Source of the DNA: an uncultured Candidatus Saccharibacteria bacterium
GTDB lineage: Bacteria; Patescibacteriota; Minisyncoccia; Phycocordibacterales; UBA918
Direction: 5' to 3'
DNA: 64,000 bases
NCBI GenBank assembly: GCA_964399295.1
Contig: CAYNQD010000002.1
Location: 104,358-168,357 of the forward strand
Shown: piece after piece, positions 9,352-64,000 of the stretch
Numbering within the stretch: position 1 is the first letter of the stretch
How the letters are laid out: each line of letters begins with the position of its first letter
Made by a program: the position numbers and the translations under genes
Notes under the pieces: model-generated
Told to the model about the DNA's origin: nothing
Database searches by the model: none
The model's input: only the letters and a program-made list of their open reading frames with translations

Positions 9352-9675
9352 GTAAACCACAGAACATTTTTATCAGACCACAACTACCCAAGCCTAAAAA
9401 TTACTATCATAACTACAAAGTAACCAGTAGTTATCCACATTCCGTAACTGTTGATATCTAAAGAAAATCCTTTTTTATAGCCATTCCCCAAAAAGATATA
9501 ATTTTTCTGAAGATGGTATTATATAGGCACGCACGAATTCTACACCGTGTGTTTCTTATATAGAGTTATATTTTCACACGCAGTTTGTATCTTTCTTAAA
9601 CTTAATTGCGTCCTACATCAACACTTAAGTTTGTGAGAGATAAGGTTAAATTTTATTAGTTTTATTTATCAGAAG

Positions 9676-18940: not shown

Positions 18941-19486
18941 ATGTTTCTTTCTGATGTAGATATTAAAAAGGGAATCGAGAGCGGTGCGCTAATAATTGAG
19001 CCATTTAATAATGAGCAGCTCCAATTGGCCAGCTACGATGTGGTGCTGGGAAATGAATTTGAGGTGGTGGATAGACACATGATTGAAGCTTCAGATCCGG
19101 CCCGAAAAATATATCCCACTACCAGAAAACTGACCGTGGCCGATGACGAGGAATTTGTCCTGCATCCAGGAGAGAATGTGCTGGGAAAACAGCGGGAGTT
19201 TGTCGGAGTTGATAATGAACATTTAATTTTGTTGTCGGGAAAGAGTAGTTTGGCGCGAATTGGTCTGGTAGTACACAATACCGCTATGCTTTTCAATCCC
19301 GGCCATCGGTTTTATCCAACCTTTGAACTGGTAAATGCCAGCAACATTCCGATTATTCTTCGTCCGGGTATGACTATTGCCCAATTGCTATTTGCTCGTC
19401 TGACTTCACCAACCAGCAAGTCTTATGAAGAGGTGGGAAGGTACGACAGTGAAAATTCCAATCACTTTGCCGAACCAAAACAGTAA
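18941..19486 (+). CDS. dcd: dCTP deaminase
   Basis: MFLSDVDIKKGIESGALIIEPF...ASYDV.LG is a dCTP deaminase/dUTPase-superfamily N-terminus. 181 aa. Confidence 0.8.
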   Translation: MFLSDVDIKKGIESGALIIEPFNNEQLQLASYDVVLGNEFEVVDRHMIEASDPARKIYPTTRKLTVADDEEFVLHPGENVLGKQREFVGVDNEHLILLSGKSSLARIGLVVHNTAMLFNPGHRFYPTFELVNASNIPIILRPGMTIAQLLFARLTSPTSKSYEEVGRYDSENSNHFAEPKQ

Positions 19487-19509
19487 ATTTTCTTTAGTTA
19501 AATTTAGTT

Positions 19510-20865
19510 CTAGTCTTTCTTTTGGATATCATGTTCACCCCGCTTTACATCAAAGCGATCCATTTCCGGATCAAGGTGAATCACTAAACCTTCGTTTTTA
19601 AATTCAGCTTCAAGTAGTCGTGCCATTTCTGCCGCTTGGTGACGGAGGGTGGGGTGTACAAAGCGAGTTGCTCTTAGCTCTACCAGGTAGACAATGGCGG
19701 GGAGGTCGCCGGTGAAGTAGTTGCTGGTGTTGTATCCCATGGCTACATAATACTGAGTGTCCTCTGGCGACAGTGTCAGTCTACCGATGGCTTCCGCTTG
19801 AGTCGTGATGAGCGCTTCCGCTTCGGCTCGAAGAGTGTCGGACAATTCGTCGAGATACCAATTATTAAAGCCAAGCTCGGTGGTGAGTAGTGGCATGCGC
19901 TGGGTAATGGCACGGTGACGTTGGATATCTCGAAAAGATCCAAAATCAAGTTGGTAGGCGAAAGCCACATCACCGGCAGTACCGATCCATTTTGGTAGCT
20001 CTGTTTTAGCGGGGCGCGTTGCCAACAGATTTTTCATGGTCGCTAATTCGGCGCGGTTGATACCATTATGGACAAGTTTACATTTTGGCACGTTGGTATC
20101 GTGATAATAGTATGACCTCATGATCTGTGCGTTGTAGGTTTCGGTTGCCTCGTATCGCTTGTCAGTGAAAGAGCTGGGGAAAGCTTCAAGTAGGGCTTGT
20201 TCAATTGTTTCAGCAATTTCACGGACTTCAGATAATGGATGGTGACGAAGGAGCGCTAGCTTATCCGAAAACTGCCGCAAATTTCCATGCCAGGCAAGGT
20301 TGGTAGTGGCGCCGGCGGGGAGAAAACCACGAGTGGTATCAAACGCTCTGGCCGCGATAGCTTTTTCATACACCGTTTCCTTTTCCTCCGCGGCTCTCGG
20401 GTAGCGTTCTTTTAATACTTTCTTCATCTCTTCAACCGCTTTTAGATAGAATGTCCGCCAAGTCTCTTGCACGGTTTTACCTTCTACACCGCCCTTAGGA
20501 TTAAGAAAAATTTGATTGGTAAAATCAATGTAGCGGGTTGATGATTCTTGGCCGGAATACAGTTTCCAGTCTTGGATTGCTTTGGCGGCGAGCATGGATA
20601 CTCCTTCAATAAATAGAGTGGCACTTCCACAATCACCAATTGATTTATGTCCATAGCCCACATAATAGCTCGACATAAATTTTTCTGAGCCTCTTTCCGC
20701 CAGGACTTTGAGGTGTCCATCAATGCCTTCGGTTGAGCGCGAATGGAGCGCTTGAAGCATGGCTTCGCTTTCGGGGCTAATAATCGCACCAGTATCAAGG
20801 ACGACCACTTGTCCGCCGTCAGATAGTGATTTGCGAGTATGTTTAATTGAATCAATGGCACTCAT
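19510..20865 (-). CDS. thyX: long, tandem-duplicated flavin-dependent thymidylate synthase (ThyX-like)
   Basis: Two ThyX-like halves. The N-half carries HKSIGDCGSATLFIEGVSMLAAKAIQD but no RHR. The C-half carries FRDIQRHRAITQR. A NLRxF...LRxxxxxxEI block appears twice. Start set at ATG 20865. The tracked ORF runs on to 21174, overlapping tmk. Genomic context is dcd/tmk/dut/glyA. Confidence 0.55.
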   Translation of the reverse strand: MSAIDSIKHTRKSLSDGGQVVVLDTGAIISPESEAMLQALHSRSTEGIDGHLKVLAERGSEKFMSSYYVGYGHKSIGDCGSATLFIEGVSMLAAKAIQDWKLYSGQESSTRYIDFTNQIFLNPKGGVEGKTVQETWRTFYLKAVEEMKKVLKERYPRAAEEKETVYEKAIAARAFDTTRGFLPAGATTNLAWHGNLRQFSDKLALLRHHPLSEVREIAETIEQALLEAFPSSFTDKRYEATETYNAQIMRSYYYHDTNVPKCKLVHNGINRAELATMKNLLATRPAKTELPKWIGTAGDVAFAYQLDFGSFRDIQRHRAITQRMPLLTTELGFNNWYLDELSDTLRAEAEALITTQAEAIGRLTLSPEDTQYYVAMGYNTSNYFTGDLPAIVYLVELRATRFVHPTLRHQAAEMARLLEAEFKNEGLVIHLDPEMDRFDVKRGEHDIQKKD

Positions 20866-20980
20866 GGGTAGATTGATTAGAAATAATAGGTATTGTACAC
20901 TATTTCCAGCCCCAATATCTGCTTCCCGCAAACAGTGAGTTTGTTGCGAGGTGGTGGTATGGTGAGGTATTATAACGATC

Positions 20981-21661
20981 GTGAGAGGAAAATTAATTGT
21001 GATTGATGGTGGTGATGGGGCGGGAAAAGCGACGCAGGTGGCACTGCTGGTAAAGCGACTACAAGCAGACGGACACAAGGTCGAGACTCTTGATTTTCCA
21101 CAGTACACGCAAAATACTTTCGGGGCGTTGATTCGCGAATGTCTTGATGGGAAGCGAGGGGATTTTATGGCCATTGACGCGCGTATTGCATCGACACTTT
21201 ACGCGGCTGACCGTTTTGAAAGTAAATTTCATTTGGAACAGTGGCTTGAAGAAGGGAAGATCGTTGTTTTAGATCGTTACGTTAGCGCTAATATGATGCA
21301 TCAAGGAGCCAAGATCGATAATGAAGAAGCTCTGGAGTCATTCTTGAGTTGGCTTGATTATATGGAACATTCAATTTTTGGAGTACCAAGACCAGACCTT
21401 ATTTTGTATTTGGAAGTGCCTTTTGCCATTAGGATTAAATTAAAATCGGAGGCAGTAGCTGGGGCCAAGCATGGGAAAGACGTAAAGGTTGATGTGGCGG
21501 AAAGAAATATCGAGCACCAAGCCAAAACCGAGGACAGAGCGAGGAAAATAGTCGCTGCTAAAAATAGTTGGGCGACTATCAGTTGTGTTGAAGAGGGAAC
21601 TATTCGTTCCAGGGAATCAATTCATGAGGATATTTATTTGGCAGTAAAATTAATATTATAA
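20981..21661 (+). CDS. tmk: thymidylate (dTMP) kinase
   Basis: P-loop LIVIDGGDGAGKATQ, DRY motif (VLDRYVSANMMHQ) and a lid region. GTG start. Confidence 0.85.
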   Translation: MRGKLIVIDGGDGAGKATQVALLVKRLQADGHKVETLDFPQYTQNTFGALIRECLDGKRGDFMAIDARIASTLYAADRFESKFHLEQWLEEGKIVVLDRYVSANMMHQGAKIDNEEALESFLSWLDYMEHSIFGVPRPDLILYLEVPFAIRIKLKSEAVAGAKHGKDVKVDVAERNIEHQAKTEDRARKIVAAKNSWATISCVEEGTIRSRESIHEDIYLAVKLIL

Positions 21662-21665
21662 ATTT

Positions 21666-22088
21666 ATGCAACTCAAAATTAAAAAACTCCATCCAAGCGC
21701 GGTTGTACCAAGCTATGCTCATCATAATGATGCCGGAATGGATCTGTGTGCGGCGGCTGAAATCACAATTGCGGCTGGCGAGCGGGTACAGGTACCAACG
21801 GGGATTGCGATGCAGATTCCTGATGGCTACGTCGGATTGGTTTGGGATAAAAGCGGCGTGTCGCACAAGGGCGGCCTCAAGACGTTGGGCGGGGTGATTG
21901 ACGCGGGGTATCGGGGTGAGATATTGGTGGGAATGGTAAATACAAGCCATGAAGCCTTTACCTTCATGGTCGGTCAAAAAGTCGCGCAGCTGCTGATACA
22001 AAAAATTGAGCAGCCAGATATTGAGGTGGTCGATGAGCTCGACGACTCAGTACGCGGCACTAGTGCGTTTGGGAGCACAGGGAAGTAG
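21666..22088 (+). CDS. dut: dUTP diphosphatase
   Basis: dUTPase motifs (AGMDLCAA, GLVWDKSG, GVIDAGYRGEI). 140 aa. Confidence 0.9.
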   Translation: MQLKIKKLHPSAVVPSYAHHNDAGMDLCAAAEITIAAGERVQVPTGIAMQIPDGYVGLVWDKSGVSHKGGLKTLGGVIDAGYRGEILVGMVNTSHEAFTFMVGQKVAQLLIQKIEQPDIEVVDELDDSVRGTSAFGSTGK

Positions 22089-22229
22089 GGCTACTCTAAT
22101 AAGAGTGTTAGGCAAGAAAGAAGAACAAATATTGGTGTTATAATAAGCGCAATAAAACTTTCATCATGATTTAAATTCGTTCGTTCAATTTTAGATTCAG
22201 ACTTTAATTACTTTTTAACTATTTCTTTT

Positions 22230-23498
22230 ATGAACGAATATAAATTTATCAAAGACCAAGACGAAGAATTGTATGCGGCGCTCGTGGGCGAGGAGGAGCG
22301 GGAGCGAAAAGGAGTTGAGCTGATTCCCAGTGAAAATTATGTGTCGCGAGCCGTTCGCGAAGCGAACGGCTCCATTTTTACCAACAAGTATTCCGAAGGT
22401 TATCCCGGCCGGCGATATTATGGCGGGCAGGAATTTACCGACCAAGTGGAAATTATCGCCGTTGAGAGAGCTAAGCAGTTATTTAAAGCCAAGTACGCCA
22501 ACGTCCAGCCTTTGGGCGGAGCCAATGCCAACGTGGCGATGTACTTTGCGCTGATGCAGCCGGGCGATACAGTACTGGGAATGGACTTGAGTCATGGTGG
22601 ACACCTGACGCATGGTCATCCGACCACGGCCATCAATCAAGTTTTCAACTTTGTCCGCTACAAAATGAAGAACGTTGATACCGGAGCCATTGATTATGAC
22701 GAATTGCGAGCGGTCGCTTTGCGAGAAAAACCAAAAATCATTTTAGCCGGTTTTTCCGCTTATAGCCGTGAGCTTGATTATTCTAAATTTGCCGCCATTG
22801 CCAAGGAGGTGGGAGCTTATACTGTGGCTGACGTGGCACACATTGCCGGTTTGATTGCTGGCGGAGTTGCTAAAAATCCTTTTAATTTTGATTTTGACGT
22901 CATGACCACCACGACGCACAAGACTTTGCGCGGCCCGCGCGGCGGAATGATTTTGGTGCGAGAAGACGCTGATATTGCCAAGCGTATCAACAAAGCAGTT
23001 TTTCCCGGCATGCAGGGCGGTCCGCACATGCACATTATTGCCGCCAAGGCTGTAGCTTTTGGTGAAGCTCTTTCGCCAGCTTTCAAAATCTACGCCAGTC
23101 AAATATTAAAAAACGCCAAGGCCATGGAAGTGGTTTTCAAGCAAGCCGGAATCCGGCTTTTGGGTGGTGGTACCGACAATCATCTTTTGTTGGCAGATGT
23201 TTATGGTTCACTTGGTATTACCGGACAGGAAGCGGAGACTGTCTTAGATGAAGTGGGAATTACTCTTAATAAAAACATGATCGCCGACGAGACTCGTACC
23301 GCTCTTGATCCTTCCGGTATTCGTTTTGGCACACCGGCCATGACTACTCGCAAGATGAAAGAGAAAGAAGCCACGTGCTTGGCTGAAATAATGATAGCAG
23401 CCATGCACGCCAAAAATGACTCCATCAAAAAACAACAACTACAAAAAGAGGTAGAGGAGTTGTGCGAAGCTTTTCCGGTACCGGAGCGGTTTGTCTAA
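22230..23498 (+). CDS. glyA: serine hydroxymethyltransferase
   Basis: ELIPSENYVSRAVREANGS.FTNKYSEGYPGRRYYGG. PLP lysine motif TTTTHKTLRGPRGG. Confidence 0.95.
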   Translation: MNEYKFIKDQDEELYAALVGEEERERKGVELIPSENYVSRAVREANGSIFTNKYSEGYPGRRYYGGQEFTDQVEIIAVERAKQLFKAKYANVQPLGGANANVAMYFALMQPGDTVLGMDLSHGGHLTHGHPTTAINQVFNFVRYKMKNVDTGAIDYDELRAVALREKPKIILAGFSAYSRELDYSKFAAIAKEVGAYTVADVAHIAGLIAGGVAKNPFNFDFDVMTTTTHKTLRGPRGGMILVREDADIAKRINKAVFPGMQGGPHMHIIAAKAVAFGEALSPAFKIYASQILKNAKAMEVVFKQAGIRLLGGGTDNHLLLADVYGSLGITGQEAETVLDEVGITLNKNMIADETRTALDPSGIRFGTPAMTTRKMKEKEATCLAEIMIAAMHAKNDSIKKQQLQKEVEELCEAFPVPERFV

Positions 23499-29404: not shown

Positions 29405-32400
29405 ATGTCTAAAAAATTAATTAGAGAAAAAGAGAATAAGAAGGGGGATTATGAGGTGAAAGAGGTTGTTCTTGGGCAGGACTTGGCTGTGGTGCCATTG
29501 GTGGAAAAGAGTGAGGTTGCTAAGCGAGAGGAGAGGGTGCAGGCCTTTTGGCAGGCGGAAGATATTTTTAATAAAAGCGTGTCTAAGCCGGCCGGTGATG
29601 AGCCAAAAGGTGATTTTATATTTTATGACGGGCCGCCGTTTGCTACCGGATTGCCTCACTATGGGCATATTTTGGCCGGTACTATGAAGGATGCCATTCC
29701 TAGGTTTTGGACAATGAATGGTTTTCGGGTGCGTCGGCGCTGGGGCTGGGACTGTCATGGCTTGCCGCTTGAAAATCTGATTGAGAAAAAACTTGGTTTG
29801 GCCAACAAAAAGGATATTGAAGAATTTGGTATTAAGAATTTTAACGAAGAGGCTCGAGAAGCCGTTTTGGAGTATCGTGATGATTGGCAGAAAATTATTC
29901 CGCGTCTGGGGCGTTTTGTGGACATGGACAATGACTACAAAACCATGGACAGTCCCTACACCGAAAGTGTGTGGTGGGTGTTTAAGCAGCTGCATGAAAA
30001 AGGGTTGGTCTATGAAGGCTTCAAGAGTATGCACATGTGTCCGCGTTGTGGCACTACCTTGTCCAATTTTGAGGTCAACTTAGGATACAAAGACGTAAAG
30101 GATATCGCTGTCACGGTACGTCTGCCACTCTTGGATAATGAAGGTAACGTGACCGACACCAGTCTTTTGGTATGGACGACCACTCCTTGGACGCTGCCGG
30201 GCAATATGGCGGCGGCGGTGCATCGTAATTTGGATTATGTAAAAGTAAAAGTGGAAACTGGGGGTGGGGCTGAGCTTATGATTTTGGCCAAGGGTCGTTT
30301 GGCGCAGTTGGGCGATTTGGTTTATGAATTAGTGGAAGAAATAAAAGGTGCGGATTTAATCGGACGTTCTTATCTGCCGCCATTTAACTACTTTGTCGAC
30401 CAAGATATCAAAGGTAAAGAAAACGCTTGGAAAATTTATCACGGTGATTTTGTGGAAGTGGGCGAGGAGGGTACTGGTGCGGTGCATATCGCACCAGCCT
30501 ATGGTGAAGACGATATGAACTTGGCCAAGGAAAATAATGTTCCCATTGCTCATCATGTGGATTTTGAGGGGCGGTTTATGCCGCTGGTGACTGATTTTGC
30601 GGGGATGTTGGTAAAACCAAAAGATGATGATGTGACTGGCGTATCGCACCTTGATGCTGACATTAAGGTTCTTAAATACCTGCAAGAAAGCGGTCGGGTT
30701 TTTAAGAAAGAAAATATCACCCACAGCTATCCGCATTGTTGGCGTGATGATACGCCTTTGCTCAATTACGCGACTACTTCTTGGTTTGTTAATGTGCCAA
30801 AAATCAAGGACGATTTAGTGGCCGCCAATAATAAAGTGAAGTGGGTGCCAGGTCATGTCGGCAGCAATCGCTTTGGGAATTGGCTGGAAGGCGCGCGTGA
30901 TTGGGCGATATCTAGGCAGCGTTATTGGGGCGCGCCGCTACCGATTTGGCGAAATAAAAAAACTGGCGAGTATAAGGTTTTTGGTTCGTTGGCGCAAATG
31001 CAAGAATACGTGCCTAAGAGTGGCAATACTTATTTTTTGATTCGGCATGGGGAATCTCAGTCTAATGTCGATCATATTTTGAACGGCCGTGTCGGGGTAG
31101 AAAATCCTTTGACCAATCTGGGAAAAGATCAGGTTATAAAAGCCGCCAAGGATATGCTTGGTGATATTGATTATATTTTTTATTCACCGTTGCAAAGAAC
31201 CAAAGAAACAGCCTTCATTATGGCCGAGACTCTTGGTTTATCAGAAGAACAGATCATAGAAGATGATCGCATCAGGGAATCCGGCATGGGTACTTTTGAA
31301 GGCCGGCCCAGCGCGGACAAAGAAAAGGAATTCAATCACCCTCAAGATGAATTTACTGAGACTGTCGGAGGAATGGAAACCTTGCTTGAGGTCAAGTCTC
31401 GCTTGGCGGAATTTATAAAGGACATTGATGCAAAATATAAAGGTAAGAAAATTGCCGTCGTTTCTCATGGAGATCCGCTGTGGATGTTGGAAGCTTTCTT
31501 GCAGGGGGCAACAATCGAGGAAGCGATTAAGCTTGAAGAAAATTATCCCAAAAACGCTGAAATAAGAAAACACACCTATACCTCTTTTCCGCACAATGAC
31601 AATTATGAATTGGATTATCACCGGCCTTATATCGACGAGATTGAGCTGTATGAAAATGGGGAAAAGCTGGAGCGAGTACCGGATGTTTTTGACTGCTGGT
31701 TTGAAAGCGGCTCGATGCCTTATGGTCAGAATCATTATCCGTTTGCCAACGAAGATGATTTTGAGCAAGAACGGTTTCCGGCAAAATTTATAGCGGAAGG
31801 ACTCGACCAAACTCGGGGGTGGTTTTATTCGATGTTGGTTTTGGGGGTAGCGCTTTTTGGCAAAAGCCCTTATGAGAACGTGATGGTCAATGGGCTCGTC
31901 TTGGCTGAAGACGGTAAAAAGATGAGTAAGTCTTTGCAGAATTATCCTGACCCGATGGAGTTGGTAAATCGCTTGGGAGCCGACGCGGTGCGCTTTTATC
32001 TATTGTCTTCACCGGCGGTGCGCGGGGAAGATTTGAATTTTTCTGAGAAGGAAGTCTTGGAATTGCAGCGTAAAAATATCGGCCGTTTGCACAATGTGTT
32101 GGCGATGTATGAGATGTTTGCACAGGAGGGGGGTGGGGTAAAGACGCGCCACGATTCCAATAATGTTTTGGATAAATGGATCGTGGCGCGTCTCAACCAG
32201 CTCATTACCGAAACTACCAACGGCTACAAATCCTACGAACTCGATAAAGCCACGCGTCCACTAACGGACTTCATTGATGATTTGTCGGTGTGGTATTTAC
32301 GGCGTTCGCGCGAGCGTTTGAAGGGTGATGATGAGGAAGACAAAGAGCTGGCTCTTGGTACTTTGCGCTTCGCGCTTTGTGGATTGGCCAAAGTGATGGC

Positions 32401-32989
32401 GCCGGCCATGCCTTTTTACGCCGAATATTTATATCGCGCTTTGCGCGCGGAAGATGAGCCCGAAAGCGTTCATCTCACGAGGTGGCCGGAAGGCGGCGTA
32501 GTCGATGAAGTTTTGCTTGAGGATATGAAAAAAACCAGAGAATTTGTCTCCATGTCGCTCGAGGCTCGCGCTAAGGCTGGTATAAAAGTGCGCCAGCCAC
32601 TGAAAACCATCTCGATTAACGAGTGTCTCAATCCCGAATTTCTTGCTGTTGTCGCCGAAGAAGTAAATGTGAAAACTGTAAAAGTAAATGAGAATCAGGC
32701 TGAGGCGGTGATTTTGGATACCGATATTACCCCCGAGTTAAAAATGGAGGGCGATGCCCGTGAACTAATCAGGACAATTCAAGATTTACGCAAGGAAGCT
32801 AACCTAAAACCTCAGGATGCAATTGTTCTAACGCTAGATACTTCTAAAGCTGGAAAGGAGACCGTCATGACTTTGTCGGAGATGATAAGAAAAGTCGTCG
32901 GCGCGCAGGAAATTGTTTTTACTCAGACCGAAGGCAAGGAAATAAAAATTGGAGACAATTCCTTTATTATTTCTATCCGAAAAATCTAA
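29405..32989 (+). CDS. ileS: isoleucyl-tRNA synthetase (type 2) carrying an inserted histidine-phosphatase (PGAM-family) domain
   Basis: HIGH variant GPPFATGLPHYGHIL. KMSKS. CP1/editing region. An in-frame insertion YFLIRHGESQSN...YSPLQRTKETA...ESGMGTFEG...VVSHGDPL (about nt 31031-31550) between the PIWRNKKTGE and DYHRPYIDE...DCWFESGSMPY blocks. 1194 aa. Confidence 0.9.
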   Translation: MSKKLIREKENKKGDYEVKEVVLGQDLAVVPLVEKSEVAKREERVQAFWQAEDIFNKSVSKPAGDEPKGDFIFYDGPPFATGLPHYGHILAGTMKDAIPRFWTMNGFRVRRRWGWDCHGLPLENLIEKKLGLANKKDIEEFGIKNFNEEAREAVLEYRDDWQKIIPRLGRFVDMDNDYKTMDSPYTESVWWVFKQLHEKGLVYEGFKSMHMCPRCGTTLSNFEVNLGYKDVKDIAVTVRLPLLDNEGNVTDTSLLVWTTTPWTLPGNMAAAVHRNLDYVKVKVETGGGAELMILAKGRLAQLGDLVYELVEEIKGADLIGRSYLPPFNYFVDQDIKGKENAWKIYHGDFVEVGEEGTGAVHIAPAYGEDDMNLAKENNVPIAHHVDFEGRFMPLVTDFAGMLVKPKDDDVTGVSHLDADIKVLKYLQESGRVFKKENITHSYPHCWRDDTPLLNYATTSWFVNVPKIKDDLVAANNKVKWVPGHVGSNRFGNWLEGARDWAISRQRYWGAPLPIWRNKKTGEYKVFGSLAQMQEYVPKSGNTYFLIRHGESQSNVDHILNGRVGVENPLTNLGKDQVIKAAKDMLGDIDYIFYSPLQRTKETAFIMAETLGLSEEQIIEDDRIRESGMGTFEGRPSADKEKEFNHPQDEFTETVGGMETLLEVKSRLAEFIKDIDAKYKGKKIAVVSHGDPLWMLEAFLQGATIEEAIKLEENYPKNAEIRKHTYTSFPHNDNYELDYHRPYIDEIELYENGEKLERVPDVFDCWFESGSMPYGQNHYPFANEDDFEQERFPAKFIAEGLDQTRGWFYSMLVLGVALFGKSPYENVMVNGLVLAEDGKKMSKSLQNYPDPMELVNRLGADAVRFYLLSSPAVRGEDLNFSEKEVLELQRKNIGRLHNVLAMYEMFAQEGGGVKTRHDSNNVLDKWIVARLNQLITETTNGYKSYELDKATRPLTDFIDDLSVWYLRRSRERLKGDDEEDKELALGTLRFALCGLAKVMAPAMPFYAEYLYRALRAEDEPESVHLTRWPEGGVVDEVLLEDMKKTREFVSMSLEARAKAGIKVRQPLKTISINECLNPEFLAVVAEEVNVKTVKVNENQAEAVILDTDITPELKMEGDARELIRTIQDLRKEANLKPQDAIVLTLDTSKAGKETVMTLSEMIRKVVGAQEIVFTQTEGKEIKIGDNSFIISIRKI

Positions 32990-33606: not shown

Positions 33607-35580
33607 ATGTCAGGAATAAAAGATCAAGAAAATATTGATGAGCTTAGGAAGCGTCTTTATGACCGTGGCTGGGAAGAGAGTGGGATGAAAAGACACGAAC
33701 TAACCAAGGCGGCCTTTGACGTGGCTAGAGGCTGGGGCGATAATACCAACAAACCCAAGCCGGAACCAATTTCCGAGTTCACGCAATCTTTGGAGGTGGT
33801 TTCTGATATTCCAGCTAAAAATGATTTTCCTATAGTTGATCCGGCTCCACTAGTGATAAAACCCAAAGGAAAAAGCCGATCCTACCGCAAAATAATTTTG
33901 CTGTTTAGCCTGGGTATATTTATTTTATCTTGTCTGTTTTCTATATTTCATCTCTTTTTCGGTGGCAACCAAATTTCCGCCAGCAACATAGACATCTCCA
34001 TAAACGCTCCTTTCGCGGTGGCGGGTGGTGACGTTGTTCCCATTCAGGTTGGTATTACCAATCAAAATTCAGTACCGATTGAGTCGGCTACTTTGATTGT
34101 AAATTACCCGACGGGAACAAAATCAGTTGAAGAAGGGGGGCGTGATTTGTATGAAGAAAGATTGTCGCTTAACGATATTGAAGCCGGTGGGGTGATAAAT
34201 TTGCCGATACAGGTAATTTTATTTGGTGAAGAAAATGAAGACAAGGAGATAAAGGCTACAATTGAATATCGGGTCAGTAATTCCAACGGCACTTTCTTCA
34301 AAGAAGCCGCTCCGGTAACGGTAAAAATAAATTCATCACCGCTGGTGATAAGGACTGAGTCGGTCGATAAAATCTCTTCCGGGCAAGACTTAGAAATAAC
34401 TTTAACCCTGATATCAAACGCGCAAAACCCGATGCGCAATGTCTTGGTGCAGGCAAATTATCCGAACAGTTTTTCTTTTATTAGTTCTGATCCACAGACA
34501 TCGGGCGGACAAAATACCTGGATATTTGATGAGATTTTACCCAACAAAGCCTACACCATAAAGCTAAAAGGCCTAGTGACAGGCTTGACCAACGAAACCT
34601 ATGAAATGCAGTTTAAAGCCGGCAATCCAAGGGCGGACAACCAATCAGAAATGGGTTCAACTTTAACTCAGACCAAAATAAATTACATAATAGAAAGGCC
34701 GTTTATAGACGTGGTGGTTGGTATAAATGGTGATCGAGACGGTTCTGCGATTTTAAATTCCGGAGTCGAAGCCAATGTGGTGGTCTTGGTGAAGAATACC
34801 TTAGATGAAGCTGTGTATGACATGCGGGTGGAATTAGTTCCAAATGGCAATCTCATCAATGATAATCGGTTATCCATAAAAAGTGGTTTTTATGATTCCG
34901 CAACAAAAAGAATCAACTGGGAAATTGCCGGCATGCCTTCACTGCAACAGGTTAGACCAGGTGAGAGTAGGGAGTTCGCTTTTTCTATTTCACCGGATGT
35001 TGGCCAGAGTACCGGCTCCTTTGATGTTTCAGCTAAGGTTTTCGCGCGCCGCGTGAATGAAGCTAGTGCCAGTGAAAGTTTGATTGGAACAGCCATTGCT
35101 GAGGCTAAGTATTCTTCGGTAATAAATCTGTCCGGTGAGGTTGGTCGCGACAACTCAGCTAGCGGCCCGATTCCGCCGATTGCCGGACAAACTACCAATT
35201 ATACAATTATCTTGGTTGCCAATGCTGGCGTGAATGATATTTCCGGCGGCGTGGTGACGACTTCACTACCACAGCATGTTAATTGGCTAAATATGACCAA
35301 CGGTGATGGCGTTATTGAGTATAATCCGGTTTCAAAACAAATAAGATGGGATGTGGGCAGTATTTCTGCTCGTGAAAGCAAGCAAATAAAGATGCAAGTT
35401 GGCCTCTTGCCAAGTGTCACGCATATTGGTAGAACATTAGTGTTGCTTGAATCACAGGATTTCACGGCAACAGACCGATTTACGGGGGTATCTTTAAGAG
35501 CAGGTAATACTAGGTTTGATAATAAATTATCCGGAGAATTAGGTTTTTCTGAAGATAACGGAATAGTTCGAGCTGAGTAA
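33607..35580 (+). CDS. single-pass membrane protein with a large extracytoplasmic, repeat-rich beta domain; function unknown
   Basis: Cytoplasmic N-terminus, one TM (IILLFSLGIFILSCLF), then about 540 aa that are Ser/Thr/Asn/Gly/Val-rich with Ig-like periodicity. Confidence 0.5.
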   Translation: MSGIKDQENIDELRKRLYDRGWEESGMKRHELTKAAFDVARGWGDNTNKPKPEPISEFTQSLEVVSDIPAKNDFPIVDPAPLVIKPKGKSRSYRKIILLFSLGIFILSCLFSIFHLFFGGNQISASNIDISINAPFAVAGGDVVPIQVGITNQNSVPIESATLIVNYPTGTKSVEEGGRDLYEERLSLNDIEAGGVINLPIQVILFGEENEDKEIKATIEYRVSNSNGTFFKEAAPVTVKINSSPLVIRTESVDKISSGQDLEITLTLISNAQNPMRNVLVQANYPNSFSFISSDPQTSGGQNTWIFDEILPNKAYTIKLKGLVTGLTNETYEMQFKAGNPRADNQSEMGSTLTQTKINYIIERPFIDVVVGINGDRDGSAILNSGVEANVVVLVKNTLDEAVYDMRVELVPNGNLINDNRLSIKSGFYDSATKRINWEIAGMPSLQQVRPGESREFAFSISPDVGQSTGSFDVSAKVFARRVNEASASESLIGTAIAEAKYSSVINLSGEVGRDNSASGPIPPIAGQTTNYTIILVANAGVNDISGGVVTTSLPQHVNWLNMTNGDGVIEYNPVSKQIRWDVGSISARESKQIKMQVGLLPSVTHIGRTLVLLESQDFTATDRFTGVSLRAGNTRFDNKLSGELGFSEDNGIVRAE

Positions 35581-35598
35581 GGTTAATTTCTAAATAAT

Positions 35599-36984
35599 AT
35601 GAAAAACGATAAAATGGACAAAATTGTCTCGCTTTGTAAGCGTCGAGGGTTTGTGTTCCCGGGGAGTGAGATTTATGGTGGATTTGTCGGGTCTTTTGAT
35701 TTTGGTCCTTATGGCGTGGAGCTGGCCAACAATATCAAAAATGCTTGGTGGCAGGCGATGGTACAGCGGGAAAAAAATATCGTGGGACTGGATTCAGCTA
35801 TTGTCACTCACCCAAAGGTTTGGGAGGCCTCAGGACATGTCGGCGGTTTTTCTGATCCATTAGTGGAATGTCGAGAGTGCAATACGCGCTCACGAGCTGA
35901 CCACTTGCTGGAAGAAGTAGGCGCTTTTGCTGATGAAAAAATGACCGTGGAAGAAATTAACCAAATTTTTGATGACAAGCGTGATGAACTAAAATGTCCG
36001 CAGTGTGGCGCGCAAAACTTCGGTGCTGTACGCAAATTCAATCTCCTAGCACAAACCAATCTCGGCAATTTTTCCGAAGATTGGACTAAAGAACCAACCT
36101 ATTTGCGAGGCGAGACTTGCCAAGGCATTTATCTTAATTTTAAAAATGTCTTAGCCAGCACCAGAGTAAAGGTTCCGTTTGGTATCGCGCAGATTGGTAA
36201 GGCTTTTCGTAACGAAATTGCACCGCGCCAATACATTTTCCGCAAACGGGAGTTTGAGCAAATGGAGATGCAGATGTTTGTCAGTCCGGAGGAGGAAATG
36301 TCCGCTTACGAAACTTGGAAGCAAAAGCGCTGGCAGTATTATTTGGACTTAGGTTTTAAAGCGGAAAATATCCGTTGGCACGAGCATGAAAACTTAGTGT
36401 TTTATGCTAAAGCCGCTTTTGACATTGAGTATAATTTTCCGTTTGGCTTTAAGGAACTGGAAGGAGTGCATGCGCGTGGCAATTATGATTTATCACAGCA
36501 CCAAAAATTCTCCGGCGTGGATATGGAATACACCGACCCGTACACCAACGAAAAATACATCCCGCACGTGGTCGAGACTTCAGTTGGTTTGGACCGTACT
36601 TTCTTGGCGGTGATGACTGAGTTTTATGATGAGGATGAATTGGGCGGGGAAACTCGGACGGTAATGCGCTTTCCCAAGAAGTTGGCACCAATCAAGGCGG
36701 CAGTTTTTCCGCTTCTAAAAAACAAGCCGGTATTGGTGGAAAAAGCCGAAGCTGTTTTTGCGCTGGTCTGCCAACACTTGCGAGCCGAATTTGACGACAA
36801 CGGCAACATTGGCAAACGCTATCGTCGGCAGGATGAGATTGGTACGCCTTATTGCGTGGTGATAGATTTTGAAACTCTAGGTGAAGAAAAACCGGAATTA
36901 AAAGATACAGTCACGGTGCGCGACCGCGACACCGGCGAGCAGGTACGAGTGCCGATTGCGGAGTTGGTAGAGTATTTGCGGTAG
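35599..36984 (+). CDS. glyQS: glycyl-tRNA synthetase (dimeric class II type)
   Basis: KIVSLCKRRGFVFPGSEIYGG... Class II motifs. C-terminal anticodon-binding domain. 461 aa. Confidence 0.9.
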   Translation: MKNDKMDKIVSLCKRRGFVFPGSEIYGGFVGSFDFGPYGVELANNIKNAWWQAMVQREKNIVGLDSAIVTHPKVWEASGHVGGFSDPLVECRECNTRSRADHLLEEVGAFADEKMTVEEINQIFDDKRDELKCPQCGAQNFGAVRKFNLLAQTNLGNFSEDWTKEPTYLRGETCQGIYLNFKNVLASTRVKVPFGIAQIGKAFRNEIAPRQYIFRKREFEQMEMQMFVSPEEEMSAYETWKQKRWQYYLDLGFKAENIRWHEHENLVFYAKAAFDIEYNFPFGFKELEGVHARGNYDLSQHQKFSGVDMEYTDPYTNEKYIPHVVETSVGLDRTFLAVMTEFYDEDELGGETRTVMRFPKKLAPIKAAVFPLLKNKPVLVEKAEAVFALVCQHLRAEFDDNGNIGKRYRRQDEIGTPYCVVIDFETLGEEKPELKDTVTVRDRDTGEQVRVPIAELVEYLR

Positions 36985-37063: not shown

Positions 37064-38500
37064 ATGTCAAACCAAAAAGCCAGATACATTACTACCACTT
37101 TGCCGTATGTAAACAACAGTCCGCATTTGGGACACGCCCTGGAATTTGTTCAGGCTGATACCTTGTCTCGCCACTATCGAGCTTTGGGACAGGAAGTTTT
37201 TTTTAATGTCGGCGTGGACGAACATGGTCAAAAAATCGCCAGGGTTGCTGATGAAAAAGGAATCGACAGACAAGCTTATGTTGACAAATACGCGGCTGAA
37301 TTTAACAAGCTAAAAGAAGCACTTGATTTAAGTTACGATAGTTTTGTTCGGACTTCCAGTCCGGCTCACAAAAAAGCGGCTCAGGAGATGTGGCAAAGGT
37401 GTGAAGCCAATGGTGATATTTATAAAAAAGCCTACAAGGGCTGGTATTGTGTCGGTTGTGAAGCTTTCAAAACCGAGTCAGACTTGGAAGACGGCAAGTG
37501 TCCCATTCACTTGACGACACCAGAATTGGTGGAAGAAGAAAATTACTTCTTCCGTTTGTCTAAGTATCAGAATTATTTAGAAGAGTATTTGGCCAAGGAG
37601 GAAGCCACGATACCGGATTGGCGCCGTTTGGAGTTATTGAATTTTGTTAAAAATGGTTTGGCGGATTTGAGTATTTCGCGAGAAAAATCGCGCATGGATT
37701 GGGGTATAGCGGTACCAAATGATGAGGAGCATGTCATGTACGTTTGGTTTGATGCTTTGACCAACTACATTTCTTGTTTGGGTTGGCCGAGTGATGAAGC
37801 GGGACAATATAAAAAATTTTGGGAGCAAGGTCAGACTTTGCAATTGGCCGGCAAAGACCAGTTGCGATTCCAGTCGGTTATCTGGCAGGCCATGCTCAAA
37901 AGCGCCGGTTTGCCGGCGACGGATATCATTTTTTATCACGGCTTTATCAATAGCGGTGGCCAAAAAATGAGCAAGAGTCTCGGTAACGTAATCTCCCCGT
38001 ATGATTTGGTAGAAAAATATGGGACTGATGCCGTTCGATATATTTTCCTTCGTCACGTGCATCCGGTTGATGATTCGGATTTGACTTGGGAAAAAATGGA
38101 CGAGTATTACACCGCTAATTTAGTAAATGGTCTGGGTAATTTGGTGGCGCGAGTGATGAAGATGTCGGAAACGCATTTGCCGGAGCCAATTGGTGTGCCG
38201 GAGTCAACCGACTCGCCAGCAGAATATCTTCAAGCCTTCGCCGAATTTAATTTCCAAACAGCGACGGACATTGTTTGGAAAAAAATTGGCGACCTCGACG
38301 AGTACATAGCTGAAACCGAGCCGTTTAAGTTGATAAAGACGGATAAAGAAAAGGGGATTGATTCTATAAAACATTTAGTGAATGAGTTGCTTGTCATTGG
38401 TCAGTTGCTCAGTCCATTTTTGCCAAATACCAGTCAGATCATTATTGAGGCGGTAAAACAAAACCAAAAACCGGATAATATTTTTCAGCGTTTGAGTTAA
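37064..38500 (+). CDS. metG: methionyl-tRNA synthetase (short form)
   Basis: HIGH variant (SPHLGHAL), KMSKS, and the Met-RS connective peptide CxxC...C (CVGCEAF...KCPIH). Confidence 0.9.
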   Translation: MSNQKARYITTTLPYVNNSPHLGHALEFVQADTLSRHYRALGQEVFFNVGVDEHGQKIARVADEKGIDRQAYVDKYAAEFNKLKEALDLSYDSFVRTSSPAHKKAAQEMWQRCEANGDIYKKAYKGWYCVGCEAFKTESDLEDGKCPIHLTTPELVEEENYFFRLSKYQNYLEEYLAKEEATIPDWRRLELLNFVKNGLADLSISREKSRMDWGIAVPNDEEHVMYVWFDALTNYISCLGWPSDEAGQYKKFWEQGQTLQLAGKDQLRFQSVIWQAMLKSAGLPATDIIFYHGFINSGGQKMSKSLGNVISPYDLVEKYGTDAVRYIFLRHVHPVDDSDLTWEKMDEYYTANLVNGLGNLVARVMKMSETHLPEPIGVPESTDSPAEYLQAFAEFNFQTATDIVWKKIGDLDEYIAETEPFKLIKTDKEKGIDSIKHLVNELLVIGQLLSPFLPNTSQIIIEAVKQNQKPDNIFQRLS

Positions 38501-38513
38501 TATTTCATGAATT

Positions 38514-39104
38514 GTGGCTTTGGCTGAAGGCCGAGTCGGTAAGGTTGGAGATAAGGAAAAAATAATTGCTAGTGAAGCTAGAGAGATTATTAAAACTCCT
38601 TGGGCGGACTTAACCTTTTCTGATAGAGGCTGGGAGATAAGCGCGGGGGTTGATGAATCAAACGCGGAGGAGGGCCTAATTCTCATGCCCAAAAATCCTT
38701 TTTTATCAGCTGAAATTATAAGAAATCAGATTAAGGAGTATTTTGGCCTAAAAAAGGTTGGAGTTATCATTAGCGATACTAAAAGTGTACCGCTTAGGGT
38801 GGGGACGGTTGGTCGTGCTGTCGGCTGTGCCGGTTTTGAGCCGATAAAAAGTTACATTGGGAAAGAAGATTTATTTGGTCGCAAAAGTCGGATCACGGTT
38901 GGCAATACTGCCGATGCTCTGGCGGCCTCGGCTGTTTTGGTAATGGGCGAGGGTAACGAACAGGCACCTTTAGCTGTAATTCGGCAAGCACCAGTGGTTT
39001 TTGTTGACCGAGCTTTGACTGCTAAAGATAGGGAAATGCAGATTTTGCCTAAAGACGATATCTTCTCCTATATTTTTGCTAAGTATTTTTCCGATAAAAA
39101 ATAA
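38514..39104 (+). CDS. CofE-like (coenzyme F420-0:gamma-glutamyl ligase family) protein, N-terminally short
   Basis: Strong collinear similarity to CofE (ALAEGR ~ ISKAEGR; GLILMPKNP...KVGVIISDTKSVPLRVGTVGRAVGCAGF...IGKEDLFGR...VGNTADALAASAVLVMGEGNEQAPLAVIR). GTG start with an in-frame stop immediately upstream. Confidence 0.6.
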   Translation: MALAEGRVGKVGDKEKIIASEAREIIKTPWADLTFSDRGWEISAGVDESNAEEGLILMPKNPFLSAEIIRNQIKEYFGLKKVGVIISDTKSVPLRVGTVGRAVGCAGFEPIKSYIGKEDLFGRKSRITVGNTADALAASAVLVMGEGNEQAPLAVIRQAPVVFVDRALTAKDREMQILPKDDIFSYIFAKYFSDKK

Positions 39105-39105
39105 A

Positions 39106-39134
39106 AGCTGGAGTTTTCTCCAGCTTTTTTTTTA
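39106..39134. terminator. bidirectional intrinsic terminator between convergent genes
   Basis: AGCTGGAG-TTTT-CTCCAGCT flanked by A- and T-runs. Confidence 0.8.
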
Positions 39135-39141
39135 ATGAGTA

Positions 39142-40173
39142 CTACTTATTATTACATAATTTCTCCATGTGCTTTAATACTTTTCGGTATAGGGCTTTAA
39201 CTATCTGGACTTGTTCCTTCCCAAGTTTGACGTAGTTGTCCAAGCCCGGCGCAGCGTTGATTTCCAATATCCAGTAGTTTTTAGGTTTATCAGCGATATC
39301 GCCGTCAATTATCAGGTCAACTCCACATAGACGCAAATTCATGTCTCGGGTCAGGTTTATCGCCAGTTTTTTAAACTTAGGATGAACCTTTTTTGTGACA
39401 TCAACAGAGTCTCCACCGGAGGAAAGGTTGGCGTTATCAAGTAAATAAATAACTTCTGCCTTATTCGGTATGGAATCCAAAGTCAGACCTCGGTGTTTTA
39501 ACTTATTTTTAATTCGGACATCGTCGATTTTAATAACGGTGTCCCGACTAATGGCGACAAACTGTTGCTGTTTTTTCTCTAAGAGTTGCCGGATGGTTGA
39601 TTTTCCGTTGCCAACAACATTGAGTGGAATCCGTCTGTACGCGGAAATAACTTTGTTGTCTAAAACTACAACCCTATAATCATTGCCGGTGATGTGTGGT
39701 TGCACAATCGCAATGCGGTCAACTCTAAAGATGGCCCGCATGGCGAAATAAAACTCTTTTTTGTTGTGAACCAATGTCACTCCCGAACCCTGGCTACCGC
39801 TATTGGGTTTGACAATCACCGGGAAAGTTAATTGCTGAGCATAAGCGTAAGCCATATCAATGTTGCGTTCCGGCTCACCAATCGCCTTACCCCAAGCGGG
39901 AGAAAAGAAGGTGTTATTGGAAATAGTTTTATAGCCCATGCTTTGCATAAAAAATGAGGCAAATCCCTTATCTTTAGCAATATCAGAGGCTCCCATTGGA
40001 TTTAAGTCCAGGGAGTTATATCTGAAATATGACCCACTGCCATTTTTAAAAGTAATTTGTCCGGCAATTTTCCATTCCGGCTCCATTAGTATGCTGGCAC
40101 CTATCTCAGCGGCAATTTCCGCAAATGTTTGTCCAAGCACTAAGGATTCACCTTTTTTAGATTTATTACTCAT
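39142..40173 (-). CDS. RimK/CofF/MptN-like ATP-grasp amino-acid ligase
   Basis: VIVKPNSGSQGSGV, RVVVLD, EINAAPGL and N..GGD, the ATP-grasp glutamate-ligase hallmarks. Confidence 0.75.
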   Translation of the reverse strand: MSNKSKKGESLVLGQTFAEIAAEIGASILMEPEWKIAGQITFKNGSGSYFRYNSLDLNPMGASDIAKDKGFASFFMQSMGYKTISNNTFFSPAWGKAIGEPERNIDMAYAYAQQLTFPVIVKPNSGSQGSGVTLVHNKKEFYFAMRAIFRVDRIAIVQPHITGNDYRVVVLDNKVISAYRRIPLNVVGNGKSTIRQLLEKKQQQFVAISRDTVIKIDDVRIKNKLKHRGLTLDSIPNKAEVIYLLDNANLSSGGDSVDVTKKVHPKFKKLAINLTRDMNLRLCGVDLIIDGDIADKPKNYWILEINAAPGLDNYVKLGKEQVQIVKALYRKVLKHMEKLCNNK

Positions 40174-44609: not shown

Positions 44610-46343
44610 ATGATAAAATATTTTGCAATGTCAATAGAACGAGGTGTGCGTCAAGACGATACATGGATAACAGTAGATTCCGTGGTTGGTTGTGCAAAAA
44701 GTTGTGGCTATTGTTTCTTACAGGGATACGATAAAACACTTAAGCCGGGCATGCCAATTATGTCGGCGGATAAAGCAATAGATAACGTATTGTCATTCGA
44801 AAATTATAGAATTGATAGTCCTATAATGGTTGGTAGTGAGACCGATGCTTTTATGAACCGCTCTAACATAAATTACTTTACTGAATTCTTTAGAATTTAC
44901 TCCGAACGTGAGCTGCCCAACCCCCTTGTGTTTTCAACAAAATGTAAAATTCCTAATGAGTTTATTGAGTTAGTAAGAAGTAACGAAGCAGTAAAGACTG
45001 TTTTTTATTTAAGCTTCTCTGGATTACCGCAAACAATTGAGCCCACAATAAAAGGCGAACATATTAGGGGTAACTTTGAACGATTGAGTGAGGCAGAAAT
45101 TCCAACAATTCACTATTGGCGTCCATTCTTGCCTCAAAATGCACAACGAGAGAAAATTAGAGAAATAATTGATTATGTTGCAAAGCTGGCTACCTGTAGT
45201 GTTGCTGTAGGTTTGAAAACTAATGATGAAATAATTAAACATCTACTCGCAGCGTGGCCGGAACTAGGTAATAATACAGAAGAGGCAAAGGCTGCGGCTG
45301 ACGTATGGCCAGAGGGTGTAAAAGATTATATTGAGGAATACACCAGTATAAAATTTCCGGAGTATCCACTTTTTTGGGTTAATTCATGCGCCCTAGCGTA
45401 CGCGCTACAAAAACCAGATTTTAATGCAATGTTTAAGGGAACTGCCTGCGATGCCAATCATTGCCCGCCCGACCAACGTGAACGGTGCGCGATAAATCTA
45501 TTAGGTTACAAACCATCTCCAGACAGCATTCGTGAAGCTTTGACGCAAATGGGTTTAGAAGATTGTAAGTTTGAAATTGATGAAAAGGAGAGAGTTGTTT
45601 CTGTGCAAGGTGATGTTACACATGGTCAACTTATTTACTTGAGGCAGAAGTTGAATTATCCAATCAAAGTACGAGGGGAGTTCTTGAGTACAAATGAATG
45701 GTCGGGACACGCGACAAACAAAGAGTCTATGCACTTACCATACGCAACCGAAAACTTCGATATTGATGTTATTTGGGAACGAGCTCAATATACTCGAAAT
45801 TTATTTCGTTCAGTAGAAAGAGTTGAATGGGGCGCGGAGCAGTACGCGCTTGAGTTGATGGTGCAAGTAGGACATCTATCAGACTTAGTACTAAGACAAG
45901 AACATAAACTAAATCGTCGCACAGAAGAAGAAAATGCTGATGCAATTGCTGATGAGATAAGTGACGTTGTTTTAAATATCTTTTCTATTGCGGATGCTTT
46001 TACTATTTCTGTTCCAACTCTAGTTAGAGAGAAATTAGGTATCTACTGGAGCGATATTGTTGATAGTAGAAAACTTATTGAAGACCTTGAATCAAGTCAT
46101 CCAACGAGCGATCAAATCGGTTTGGCCATGCTTGAATTATCAAAACAATCTGCATTGCTTGCAAGTATGGTTATTTCAGTTGGAAAAGAGGATATTGGAC
46201 AGAAGGAATTAAGTCAAGCGTTACTAGATTCCCTTCGTGCATGTTTTTCTGTACTGAATTTCTACAACGTCAATTTACATAAAGCATTTGACAAAATGAT
46301 CCTCGAATCTGAAGCATTTGTCGAAAAAAATAAACTCGCATAA
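44610..46343 (+). CDS. fusion protein: SplB-like radical-SAM domain plus C-terminal tandem MazG-like NTP-pyrophosphohydrolase domains
   Basis: CxxxCxxC as GCAKSCGYCFLQ, the COG1533/SplB-type context. C-terminal E-rich helices RRTEEENADAIADEISDVVLNIFSIA and ...LLDSLRACFSVLNFYNVNL match the MazG EExxE...DE.GD.L pattern twice. Confidence 0.6.
   Translation: MIKYFAMSIERGVRQDDTWITVDSVVGCAKSCGYCFLQGYDKTLKPGMPIMSADKAIDNVLSFENYRIDSPIMVGSETDAFMNRSNINYFTEFFRIYSERELPNPLVFSTKCKIPNEFIELVRSNEAVKTVFYLSFSGLPQTIEPTIKGEHIRGNFERLSEAEIPTIHYWRPFLPQNAQREKIREIIDYVAKLATCSVAVGLKTNDEIIKHLLAAWPELGNNTEEAKAAADVWPEGVKDYIEEYTSIKFPEYPLFWVNSCALAYALQKPDFNAMFKGTACDANHCPPDQRERCAINLLGYKPSPDSIREALTQMGLEDCKFEIDEKERVVSVQGDVTHGQLIYLRQKLNYPIKVRGEFLSTNEWSGHATNKESMHLPYATENFDIDVIWERAQYTRNLFRSVERVEWGAEQYALELMVQVGHLSDLVLRQEHKLNRRTEEENADAIADEISDVVLNIFSIADAFTISVPTLVREKLGIYWSDIVDSRKLIEDLESSHPTSDQIGLAMLELSKQSALLASMVISVGKEDIGQKELSQALLDSLRACFSVLNFYNVNLHKAFDKMILESEAFVEKNKLA

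Positions 46344-62764: not shown

Positions 62765-64000
<1,236 letters not shown>

Follow-up and report, generated by a model that had tools for sequence, protein, structure and literature searches.

Introduction

The closest described relatives of the locus analyzed here come from the metabolism of coenzyme F420 and of folate. The gamma-glutamyl ligase CofE and the N-domain of FbiB (AfCofE; Protein Data Bank [PDB] entries 2PHN, 2G9I, and 7ULD) belong to the PF01996 fold family, and CofE acts through nucleotide- and metal-dependent formation of an acyl phosphate on a terminal carboxylate, which is then attacked by L-glutamate (PMC10861534). F420 and methanopterin are capped by CofF and MptN, respectively, both of them alpha-L-glutamate ligases of the ATP-grasp type. 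In Chlamydia trachomatis, a host-dependent bacterium without F420 genes, the CofE homolog CT611 (FolC2) is clustered with folate genes, complements an Escherichia coli folC mutant, and thereby functionally replaces FolC (PMC1971073). That a CofE homolog can act as FolC has been known since that 2007 report, and a curated model exists, the NCBIfam entry TIGR04132 (“putative folate metabolism gamma-glutamate ligase,” Chlamydia FolC2-type). Here, we analyzed a 64,000-nt stretch of DNA from an uncultured Candidatus Saccharibacteria bacterium (contig CAYNQD010000002.1, positions 104,358 to 168,357; hereafter, the window), in which an open reading frame (ORF) for a CofE-like protein (38514–39104, + strand) converges on the gene of an ATP-grasp ligase (39142–40173, − strand).

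A large part of bacterial diversity belongs to the Patescibacteria, which rely on other cells for cofactors. A 2025 survey found folate-using enzymes in ~90% of Patescibacteria (Candidate Phyla Radiation [CPR]) genomes, with no known folate transporter (PMC11974145). The window is AT-rich (~43% GC), its genes and their arrangement are those of a Patescibacterium, and the close protein matches of its ORFs all come from Patescibacterial genomes. The original prediction had read the convergent genes, from the letters of the window alone, as a CofE-like and a RimK/CofF/MptN-type ligase out of F420 context, which would either glutamylate a different acceptor or be relics. Taken as a whole, the reading we arrive at with moderate confidence is that the pair belongs to a Patescibacterial folate module, in which the ligase would be of the FolC2 type and the ATP-grasp protein its partner, and that the ligase copy of the window is a recent relic.

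Results

The CofE-like Family Is Closest to a Folate-Type Model

The CofE-like nature of the ORF at 38514–39104, which encodes 196 aa from a GTG start, was borne out by profile searches. PF01996 (F420_ligase) matched residues 16–157 at an E value of 1.2e-33 and 117 bits (cutoff 25), and the AfCofE structures were matched at E ~6e-39 when a profile of the ORF's family was used as the query. As in CofE, the NAG-x-D-x-SN, ITDT, and MGEG motifs are present. The search went halfway toward placing the protein in another family than the one predicted, the best model describing a sister family that likewise belongs to the CofE superfamily: TIGR04132 was the top model for 28 of 28 family members tested, with a best E value of 2e-65 compared to ~1e-46 for the CofE models. 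For the window copy, TIGR04132 scored 152 bits versus 129.9 bits for TIGR01916 (CofE).

These scores bear on whether the two genes might be an ordinary cofE/cofF pair, with the F420 pathway lying elsewhere in the genome. Such a pair would fit the PF01996 match and the name “coenzyme F420-0:L-glutamate ligase,” which both NCBI and JGI give to members of the family. However, the window copy and its full-length closest relative P0002 (153 bits), like all 28 members tested, stay under the TIGR01916 equivalog cutoff of 180.65 bits, and the best model is the folate-type one. To our knowledge, F420 production is not known from Patescibacteria. We therefore consider an F420 pair extremely unlikely; judged from its sequences, the Patescibacterial ligase family is most likely not an F420 enzyme, and the F420 ligase name is probably wrong for Patescibacteria. 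The family is, rather, a new clade of CofE-type ligases that is widely misannotated as an F420 enzyme.

Folate Genes Recur around the CofE-like Ligase

We then analyzed the neighbors of the CofE-like gene across Patescibacteria, using 81 loci from 80 species-representative genomes (drawn from at least 575 matches); ORFs within 4.5 kb were clustered, and the cluster representatives were checked against Pfam. A folate enzyme was found within this distance in 35 of the 81 loci. The recurrent neighbors comprised ThyA (16/81), dihydrofolate reductase (DHFR; 15/81), a RibD_C/DHFR-like protein (12/81), serine hydroxymethyltransferase (SHMT; 12/81), FolD (10/81), dCMP deaminase (9/81), and 5-formyltetrahydrofolate cyclo-ligase (5-FCL; 5/81), and the ATP-grasp gene was directly adjacent in 22 loci. 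One typical operon runs Vut_1, (RibD_C), CofE-like, (ATP-grasp), dCMP deaminase, MazG, the other strand encoding DHFR and ThyA; a second runs Vut_1, CofE-like, SHMT, FolD. No cof or fbi genes were among the recurrent neighbors in ~165 related loci, a further point against an F420 pair, and Pfam scans of ~45 window ORFs detected no cofC, cofD, cofG, cofH, or fbiC-type domains, in line with the original impression that no deazaflavin genes were in view. A search of the whole window and eight related loci with Rfam gathering thresholds yielded no tetrahydrofolate riboswitch, only transfer RNAs (tRNAs) and 23S ribosomal RNA (rRNA) being matched.

Since the best model is FolC2-type and the genes cluster with those of folate one-carbon metabolism across Patescibacteria, we propose with good confidence, on profile and gene-context grounds, that folate is the acceptor of the CofE-like family. 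The predicted “different acceptor” thus held up as far as it meant a cofactor, while its other candidates, a peptide or a ribosomal protein, found no support. Canonical FolC was detected neither in the window nor near any CofE-like locus, and we infer that the full-length CofE-like protein stands in for it. As with Chlamydia FolC2, the setting is a host-dependent bacterium, without F420 genes as far as the window and the related loci show, and the gene, whose product is of the CofE superfamily, is clustered with folate genes. In contrast to the Chlamydia system, Patescibacteria appear to salvage folate rather than synthesize it, and their module includes an additional ATP-grasp partner as well as a Vut_1 transporter; moreover, the N terminus of the window copy is truncated. 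Compared to CofE, the Patescibacterial family lacks F420 context as well as equivalog-level scores, and its acceptor would be folate.

Several observations weigh against assigning the locus to folate metabolism. The trusted cutoff of TIGR04132 is 350 bits, far above the scores of the window copy (152 bits), P0002 (184 bits), and the best-scoring member (~220 bits), which indicates that the Patescibacterial members are a related but distinct clade and not equivalogs of FolC2. In the window, no folate gene adjoins the pair. Folate use is nonetheless encoded in the window, by an SHMT gene (glyA; 22230–23498, +; PF00464, E 3.5e-149), whose product shares 51–66% identity in tblastn with SHMTs beside CofE-like genes of other genomes, and by a long ORF for a ThyX-like flavin-dependent thymidylate synthase (19510–21174, −). 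The latter has a Thy1 domain at residues 151–333 (PF02511, E 1.7e-23) and scores 52 bits on TIGR02170, under the cutoff of 88; as the second folate user of the window, it occupies the place that ThyA plus DHFR have in relatives. The presence of both genes implies that this genome uses folate. They lie 15–19 kb upstream of the CofE-like ORF, and the impression that the pair had no metabolic context reflects the rearranged locus of this lineage.

The two genes are part of a thymidylate module at 18941–23498 that contains a dCTP deaminase, the 554-aa ThyX-like ORF, and SHMT. The 5′ end of the ThyX-like ORF overlaps a thymidylate kinase ORF by ~190 nt. Relatives differ in this module, having dCMP deaminase, DHFR, and ThyA beside the CofE-like gene.

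The strongest neighbor of all, the Vut_1 (PF02592) membrane protein, also speaks against a role in folate metabolism. In 40 of the 81 loci, its gene directly precedes the CofE-like gene within folate operons (examples are L018 at ~5400–6100, L033, and L041 at 9379–10035; the window has none), and the protein passes the cutoff of TIGR00697, a queuosine precursor transporter model, with 134 bits. The ligase might accordingly act on a carboxylate 7-deazaguanine/queuosine precursor, such as 7-carboxy-7-deazaguanine (CDG), imported by the adjacent Vut_1/YhhQ-type transporter, and the frequency of this neighbor fits such a role. However, tgt, queA, and the like do not recur in these loci, whereas SHMT, FolD, DHFR, ThyA, and 5-FCL do; FolC substitutes for the ligase beside the ATP-grasp gene (see below); and the FolC2 precedent points to folate. 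A queuosine-precursor substrate is thus very unlikely. We regard the Vut_1/YhhQ-type protein instead as a candidate importer of folate or folinate in CPR bacteria.

The ATP-grasp Gene Is Linked to FolC or to the CofE-like Ligase

To assess the partner gene, ATP-grasp loci were sampled independently of the ligase (80 metagenome loci plus four look-ups; 80 loci with at least one neighbor, radius 4 kb). Folate genes were again frequent, with at least one near the ATP-grasp gene in 53 of the 80 loci. 5-FCL was found in 24 loci, in 21 of which it was immediately adjacent, making it the commonest immediate neighbor. The CofE-like gene was present in 25 loci and canonical FolC in 11, but no locus had both (0/80). 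These FolC neighbors are products of true folC genes, with 300–313 bits on TIGR01499 (cutoff 163). FolC, although of a non-homologous fold, being a dihydrofolate/folylpolyglutamate synthase of the Mur-ligase type, takes the same position beside ATP-grasp, RibD_C, and 5-FCL in other Patescibacteria, which implies the same role. The alternation is thus independent evidence that the CofE-like protein does the job of FolC, and it ties the ATP-grasp protein to the glutamylation step.

The ATP-grasp/CofE-like pair was observed in at least seven gene orders and orientations, a variety that speaks for selected linkage and against synteny by mere descent. Gene arrangements and protein families together indicate that the pairing is a conserved functional linkage and not chance synteny, and they suggest that the ATP-grasp protein is a folate-module enzyme, a conserved partner of the glutamyl ligase step. 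One could still suppose that the two genes are neighbors by inheritance, without any functional tie, and that the ATP-grasp protein is engaged in unrelated work, e.g., the synthesis of a cell-wall peptide or a glutathione-like peptide. The neighbors in the window are housekeeping genes, a gene for a VanY-type carboxypeptidase lies 1 kb away, and Dala_Dala_lig_C is among the top Pfam matches of the protein; also, 27 of the 80 ATP-grasp loci have no folate gene within 4 kb, which counts against the folate module as a whole. However, adjacency has been kept in all these arrangements across divergent classes, true FolC replaces the CofE-like gene in the 11 loci mentioned above, the commonest immediate neighbor is a folate enzyme, 5-FCL, and no Mur or Ddl genes recur beside the ATP-grasp gene in the 80 loci. 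An unrelated role is therefore improbable.

The ATP-grasp Ligase Resembles CphA and GshAB More Than RimK

The 343-aa ATP-grasp ligase of the window is intact and belongs to a Patescibacteria-wide family, with 2,906 matches and 63–78% identity across classes, throughout which the catalytic motifs KPNSGSQG and E304-x-N306 do not vary. PF08443 matched at E 6e-17, and the ATP-grasp fold is present with its nucleotide- and Mg-binding motifs. Assignment to the RimK/CofF/MptN type, as originally predicted, proved too specific. The protein scored 71.7 bits on the RimK family model (cutoff 143), 47.5 bits on MptN (cutoff 350), and 35 bits on CofF (cutoff 300), none of which reaches its cutoff, and the low CofF score is again at odds with an ordinary cofE/cofF pair. 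In contrast, it scored 167 bits on the G-domain region of cyanophycin synthetase (TIGR02068), 158 bits on the C-terminal domain of GshAB, and 107 bits on N-acetylglutaminylglutamine synthetase. Profile searches of the PDB gave the same ranking, with CphA2, CphA1, and GshAB at E 1e-31 to 1e-37 and Ddl and RimK at ~1e-7, and Foldseek, using a model with a predicted local distance difference test (pLDDT) score of 72, found CphA2, CphA1, and GshAB at E 1e-16. By these comparisons, the protein lies outside the RimK clade and is RimK/CofF/MptN-like at the superfamily level only.

Its nearest relatives by sequence and fold, the G domain of CphA1/CphA2 and the C-terminal ATP-grasp domain of GshAB, all attach an amino acid to a peptide or N-acyl amino acid, whose alpha-carboxylate they activate. 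The architectures differ, since CphA consists of three domains (N, ATP-grasp G, and Mur-ligase-like M; ~870 aa) and the 343-aa protein stands alone without N or M; neither does it have a GshA domain. NCBI calls many stand-alone members of 336 aa “cyanophycin synthetase” (P0134, P0159, P0170, P0195, P0197, P0200, and P0228). This label is probably an over-annotation because the match is partial: it is confined to profile positions 235–448 of 862, and its 167 bits compare to a cutoff of 850.

A 5′ Deletion Has Truncated the Ligase Gene of the Window

The CofE-like ORF directly follows metG, as had been noted, and is shorter than its relatives. The methionyl-tRNA synthetase gene is complete (37064–38500, +; PF09334, E 5.5e-101; TIGR00398, 417 bits) and ends with a TAA stop at 38498–38500, 13 nt before the ORF. 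Matches of the ORF cover only positions 75–217 of 218 in PF01996 and 52–234 of 241 in TIGR04132, and of >300 homologs found, nearly all are 230–245 aa long. The predicted in-frame stop just upstream is a TGA at 38508–38510, bounding the CofE-like frame; full-length relatives are homologous from the very next codon, Ile 38511, so that 38–40 residues are missing compared to Patescibacterial relatives and ~50 compared to AfCofE. The original estimate was about 45 missing residues. The window ORF begins at family position 41. Lost are strand 1 (residues 2–6), helix 1 (17–24), strand 2 (31–36), and most of helix 2 (37–43), all of which are modeled with pLDDT 93–97 in the AlphaFold (AF2) model of full-length P0002, together with the near-invariant T36-S37-K38 motif (alignment A2).

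What remains between metG and the ORF is a deletion scar (38501–38513, +), delimited by sequence inspection, three-frame translation, tblastn with the N termini of relatives, and DNA alignment against L004 and L007. When the N termini of four relatives served as tblastn queries (E up to 100) against other frames and the remainder of the window, no remnant of the missing segment was detected, the junction itself being the sole match. An ATG at 38507–38509, 6 nt past the metG stop and one base out of frame, opens a 6-codon mini-ORF; in view of its position, it may have been the ancestral start codon before a deletion of ~110 nt. We also considered a MetRS–ligase fusion or frameshift product and rejected it, since metG has its own stop in a different frame and the ATG opens six codons only. 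The same junction was found in seven Logan contigs, which derive from several sequencing runs, as well as in a second strain (L001), which is 98.7% identical over 12.6 kb, and this recurrence excludes an assembly error.

The closest relative of the ligase, P0002, has 231 aa and shares 69% identity with it. The gene order of the P0002 loci (IleRS, RecO, a DUF11 protein, GlyRS, MetRS, the CofE-like ligase, the convergent ATP-grasp, TatD, VanY, S6, SSB, S18, and EF-P) is perfectly syntenic with that of the window. MetRS is likewise followed by the CofE-like gene in the relatives L004 and L008, where the ligase ATG lies 2 nt after the metG stop. We then surveyed gene length in 110 further loci with a CofE-like gene, 107 of which were contig-internal. 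In all 107 internal copies, the alignment to the full-length protein begins at residue 5 or before, and the window allele is the exception.

At the other end of the gene, the shared bidirectional terminator proposed in the original prediction is present as an intrinsic-terminator-like hairpin (39103–39128, both strands; 11-bp stem, 4-nt loop, T-runs on either strand) between the convergent CofE-like and ATP-grasp genes.

The Truncated Ligase Is Probably a Recent Relic

Since core fold elements and a conserved motif have been lost, and since the copy is unique among so many full-length ones, we weight the relic reading higher for this genome: the structural comparison suggests that the window copy is probably a recent, inactive product of the 5′ deletion. 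The earlier suggestion of a relic is thus the likelier description of the window copy.

The state of the ORF can be read differently. The 196 retained codons show no decay and no internal stops. All 27 invariant columns of A2 (a 28-sequence alignment) are kept in the retained part; of 50 highly conserved columns, the copy differs at only 2, like its full-length relatives. Its rate is not accelerated (identity to 25 outgroups of 0.530, compared to 0.554 and 0.531 for full-length relatives), and none of the 161 sites that differ from strain L001 over 12.6 kb falls in the ligase gene. In addition, the ORF is tightly stacked after metG, which leaves room for a truncated product. Accordingly, the 196-aa protein might be a functional short form, with translation coupled to metG and starting at GTG 38514, that serves as a gamma-glutamyl ligase, subunit, or regulator with the ATP-grasp protein. 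Retention of the terminator and the occurrence of the allele in two strains 1.3% divergent would agree with such a form, and since the genome hardly uses Shine-Dalgarno sites, the lack of one before the GTG is uninformative. However, the lost strands and helices belong to the core, the T-S-K motif is gone with them, every other internal copy is full length, GTG starts are rare in the window, and lack of decay is equally expected after a recent deletion. On balance, we consider a functional short form unlikely and retain the relic as the probable state.

A second disruption of the gene, which also favors the relic reading, was observed in another lineage, L172 (1425–2150), an independent CofE-like copy with an in-frame TAA at codon 29 and an MGEG to MREG change. 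This gene is still convergent with its ATP-grasp gene, which is adjoined by a gene for a poly-gamma-glutamate hydrolase (PF05908; 3201–3755); we give the hydrolase little weight because it occurs in this locus only.

Other Features of the Window

Several further genes of the window have unusual features. Precomputed Pfam matches place a PF00300 His_Phos_1 domain within the isoleucyl-tRNA synthetase (IleRS; 29405–32989, +; 1,194 aa), where it separates tRNA-synt_1 segments; the insertion is kept in the 1,200-aa ortholog of L004. The ribonucleotide reductase genes (9676–10998, +, and 11023–12699, +) encode a small subunit with an N-terminal ATP-cone and a 558-aa large subunit that shows none; an ATP-cone on NrdB, with allosteric control on that subunit, is an uncommon arrangement. 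Compared to L001, the region 33607–36984 has 21 single-nucleotide polymorphisms (SNPs) per kb in the DUF11 surface-protein gene and 64 per kb in the glycyl-tRNA synthetase (GlyRS) gene, with 0–2 per kb in the flanks. This cluster looks like a recombination tract between co-occurring strains.

Near the end of the window, a gene at 59333–60535 (+), which adjoins those for L10 and L7/L12, encodes a MATCAP/QEGLA-family protein (PF08014, E 1e-19; TIGR02421, 71 bits) resembling a tyrosine carboxypeptidase. The 23S rRNA gene starts at 62773 (62773–64000, +); a whole-window Rfam scan detected neither 16S rRNA nor tRNA upstream of it, and given the missing 16S rRNA, the rRNA genes appear unlinked. Lastly, a 577-aa ORF without a Pfam match (44610–46343, +) carries an N-terminal CxxxCxxC motif (GCAKSCGYCF) reminiscent of radical-SAM enzymes, and its position beside EF-P is kept in strains L001–L003.

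Discussion

The gene contexts described above, together with the precedent of FolC2, suggest how the module may work. The full-length CofE-superfamily protein would be a folylpolyglutamate ligase of the FolC2 type, presumably GTP-dependent like CofE and sharing its metal-dependent acyl-phosphate chemistry (PMC10861534). The terminal gamma-carboxylate of salvaged folate would be activated as an acyl phosphate, and L-glutamate would then be added. Such glutamylation would keep the folate cofactor in the cell and fit it to SHMT, FolD, and ThyA or ThyX. By analogy with its nearest characterized relatives, the ATP-grasp protein may extend the glutamyl tail of folate by an amino acid, probably Glu or Asp, much in the way that CofF and MptN act on F420 and methanopterin. 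In the window, a deletion of ~110 nt at the metG/ligase junction would have removed the first 38–40 codons of the ligase and left the ATP-grasp gene intact; compared to CofE, the remaining protein is short of the first 40–50 residues.

For the ATP-grasp protein, we put forward only tentatively, and with less than even confidence, that the residue it adds to the folate tail is alpha-linked, which would make it a functional analog of CofF and MptN. The proposal rests on two points: in all of the nearest characterized relatives, the group activated is the alpha-carboxylate of a peptide or of an N-acylated amino acid, and folate is N-pteroyl-glutamate. What it would share with CofF and MptN is that an ATP-grasp enzyme works on the tail of a cofactor, following or accompanying a gamma-glutamyl ligase. 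An alpha-linked folylpolyglutamate activity of E. coli was reportedly described biochemically in 1986, and we know of no gene assigned to it. A broader proposal is held with similarly low confidence: the ATP-grasp protein might be an unrecognized folate-tail ligase, conserved across Patescibacteria, that works with either FolC or FolC2 and places an alpha-linked amino acid on folyl(poly)glutamate, and the Vut_1/YhhQ-type protein might be the missing importer of folate or folinate. In the literature that we searched, the 2007 FolC2 report and the 2025 CPR survey were the relevant papers, and we found no description of a conserved linkage of this CphA/GshB-like ATP-grasp protein with FolC or a CofE-type ligase or with 5-FCL, nor of a link to Vut_1.

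For the window itself, the lesson is modest, in that the gene flagged at the outset would be a recent deletion derivative, illustrating ongoing gene loss in a reduced genome. The implications for Patescibacteria are wider. Hundreds of proteins now labeled “F420-0:L-glutamate ligase” or “cyanophycin synthetase” would be reassigned to a folate salvage/retention module, in which FolC and the CofE-type ligase offer a clean case of non-orthologous alternation. The analysis also singles out two testable components of this module, namely an ATP-grasp protein tied to polyglutamylation and the Vut_1 transporter.

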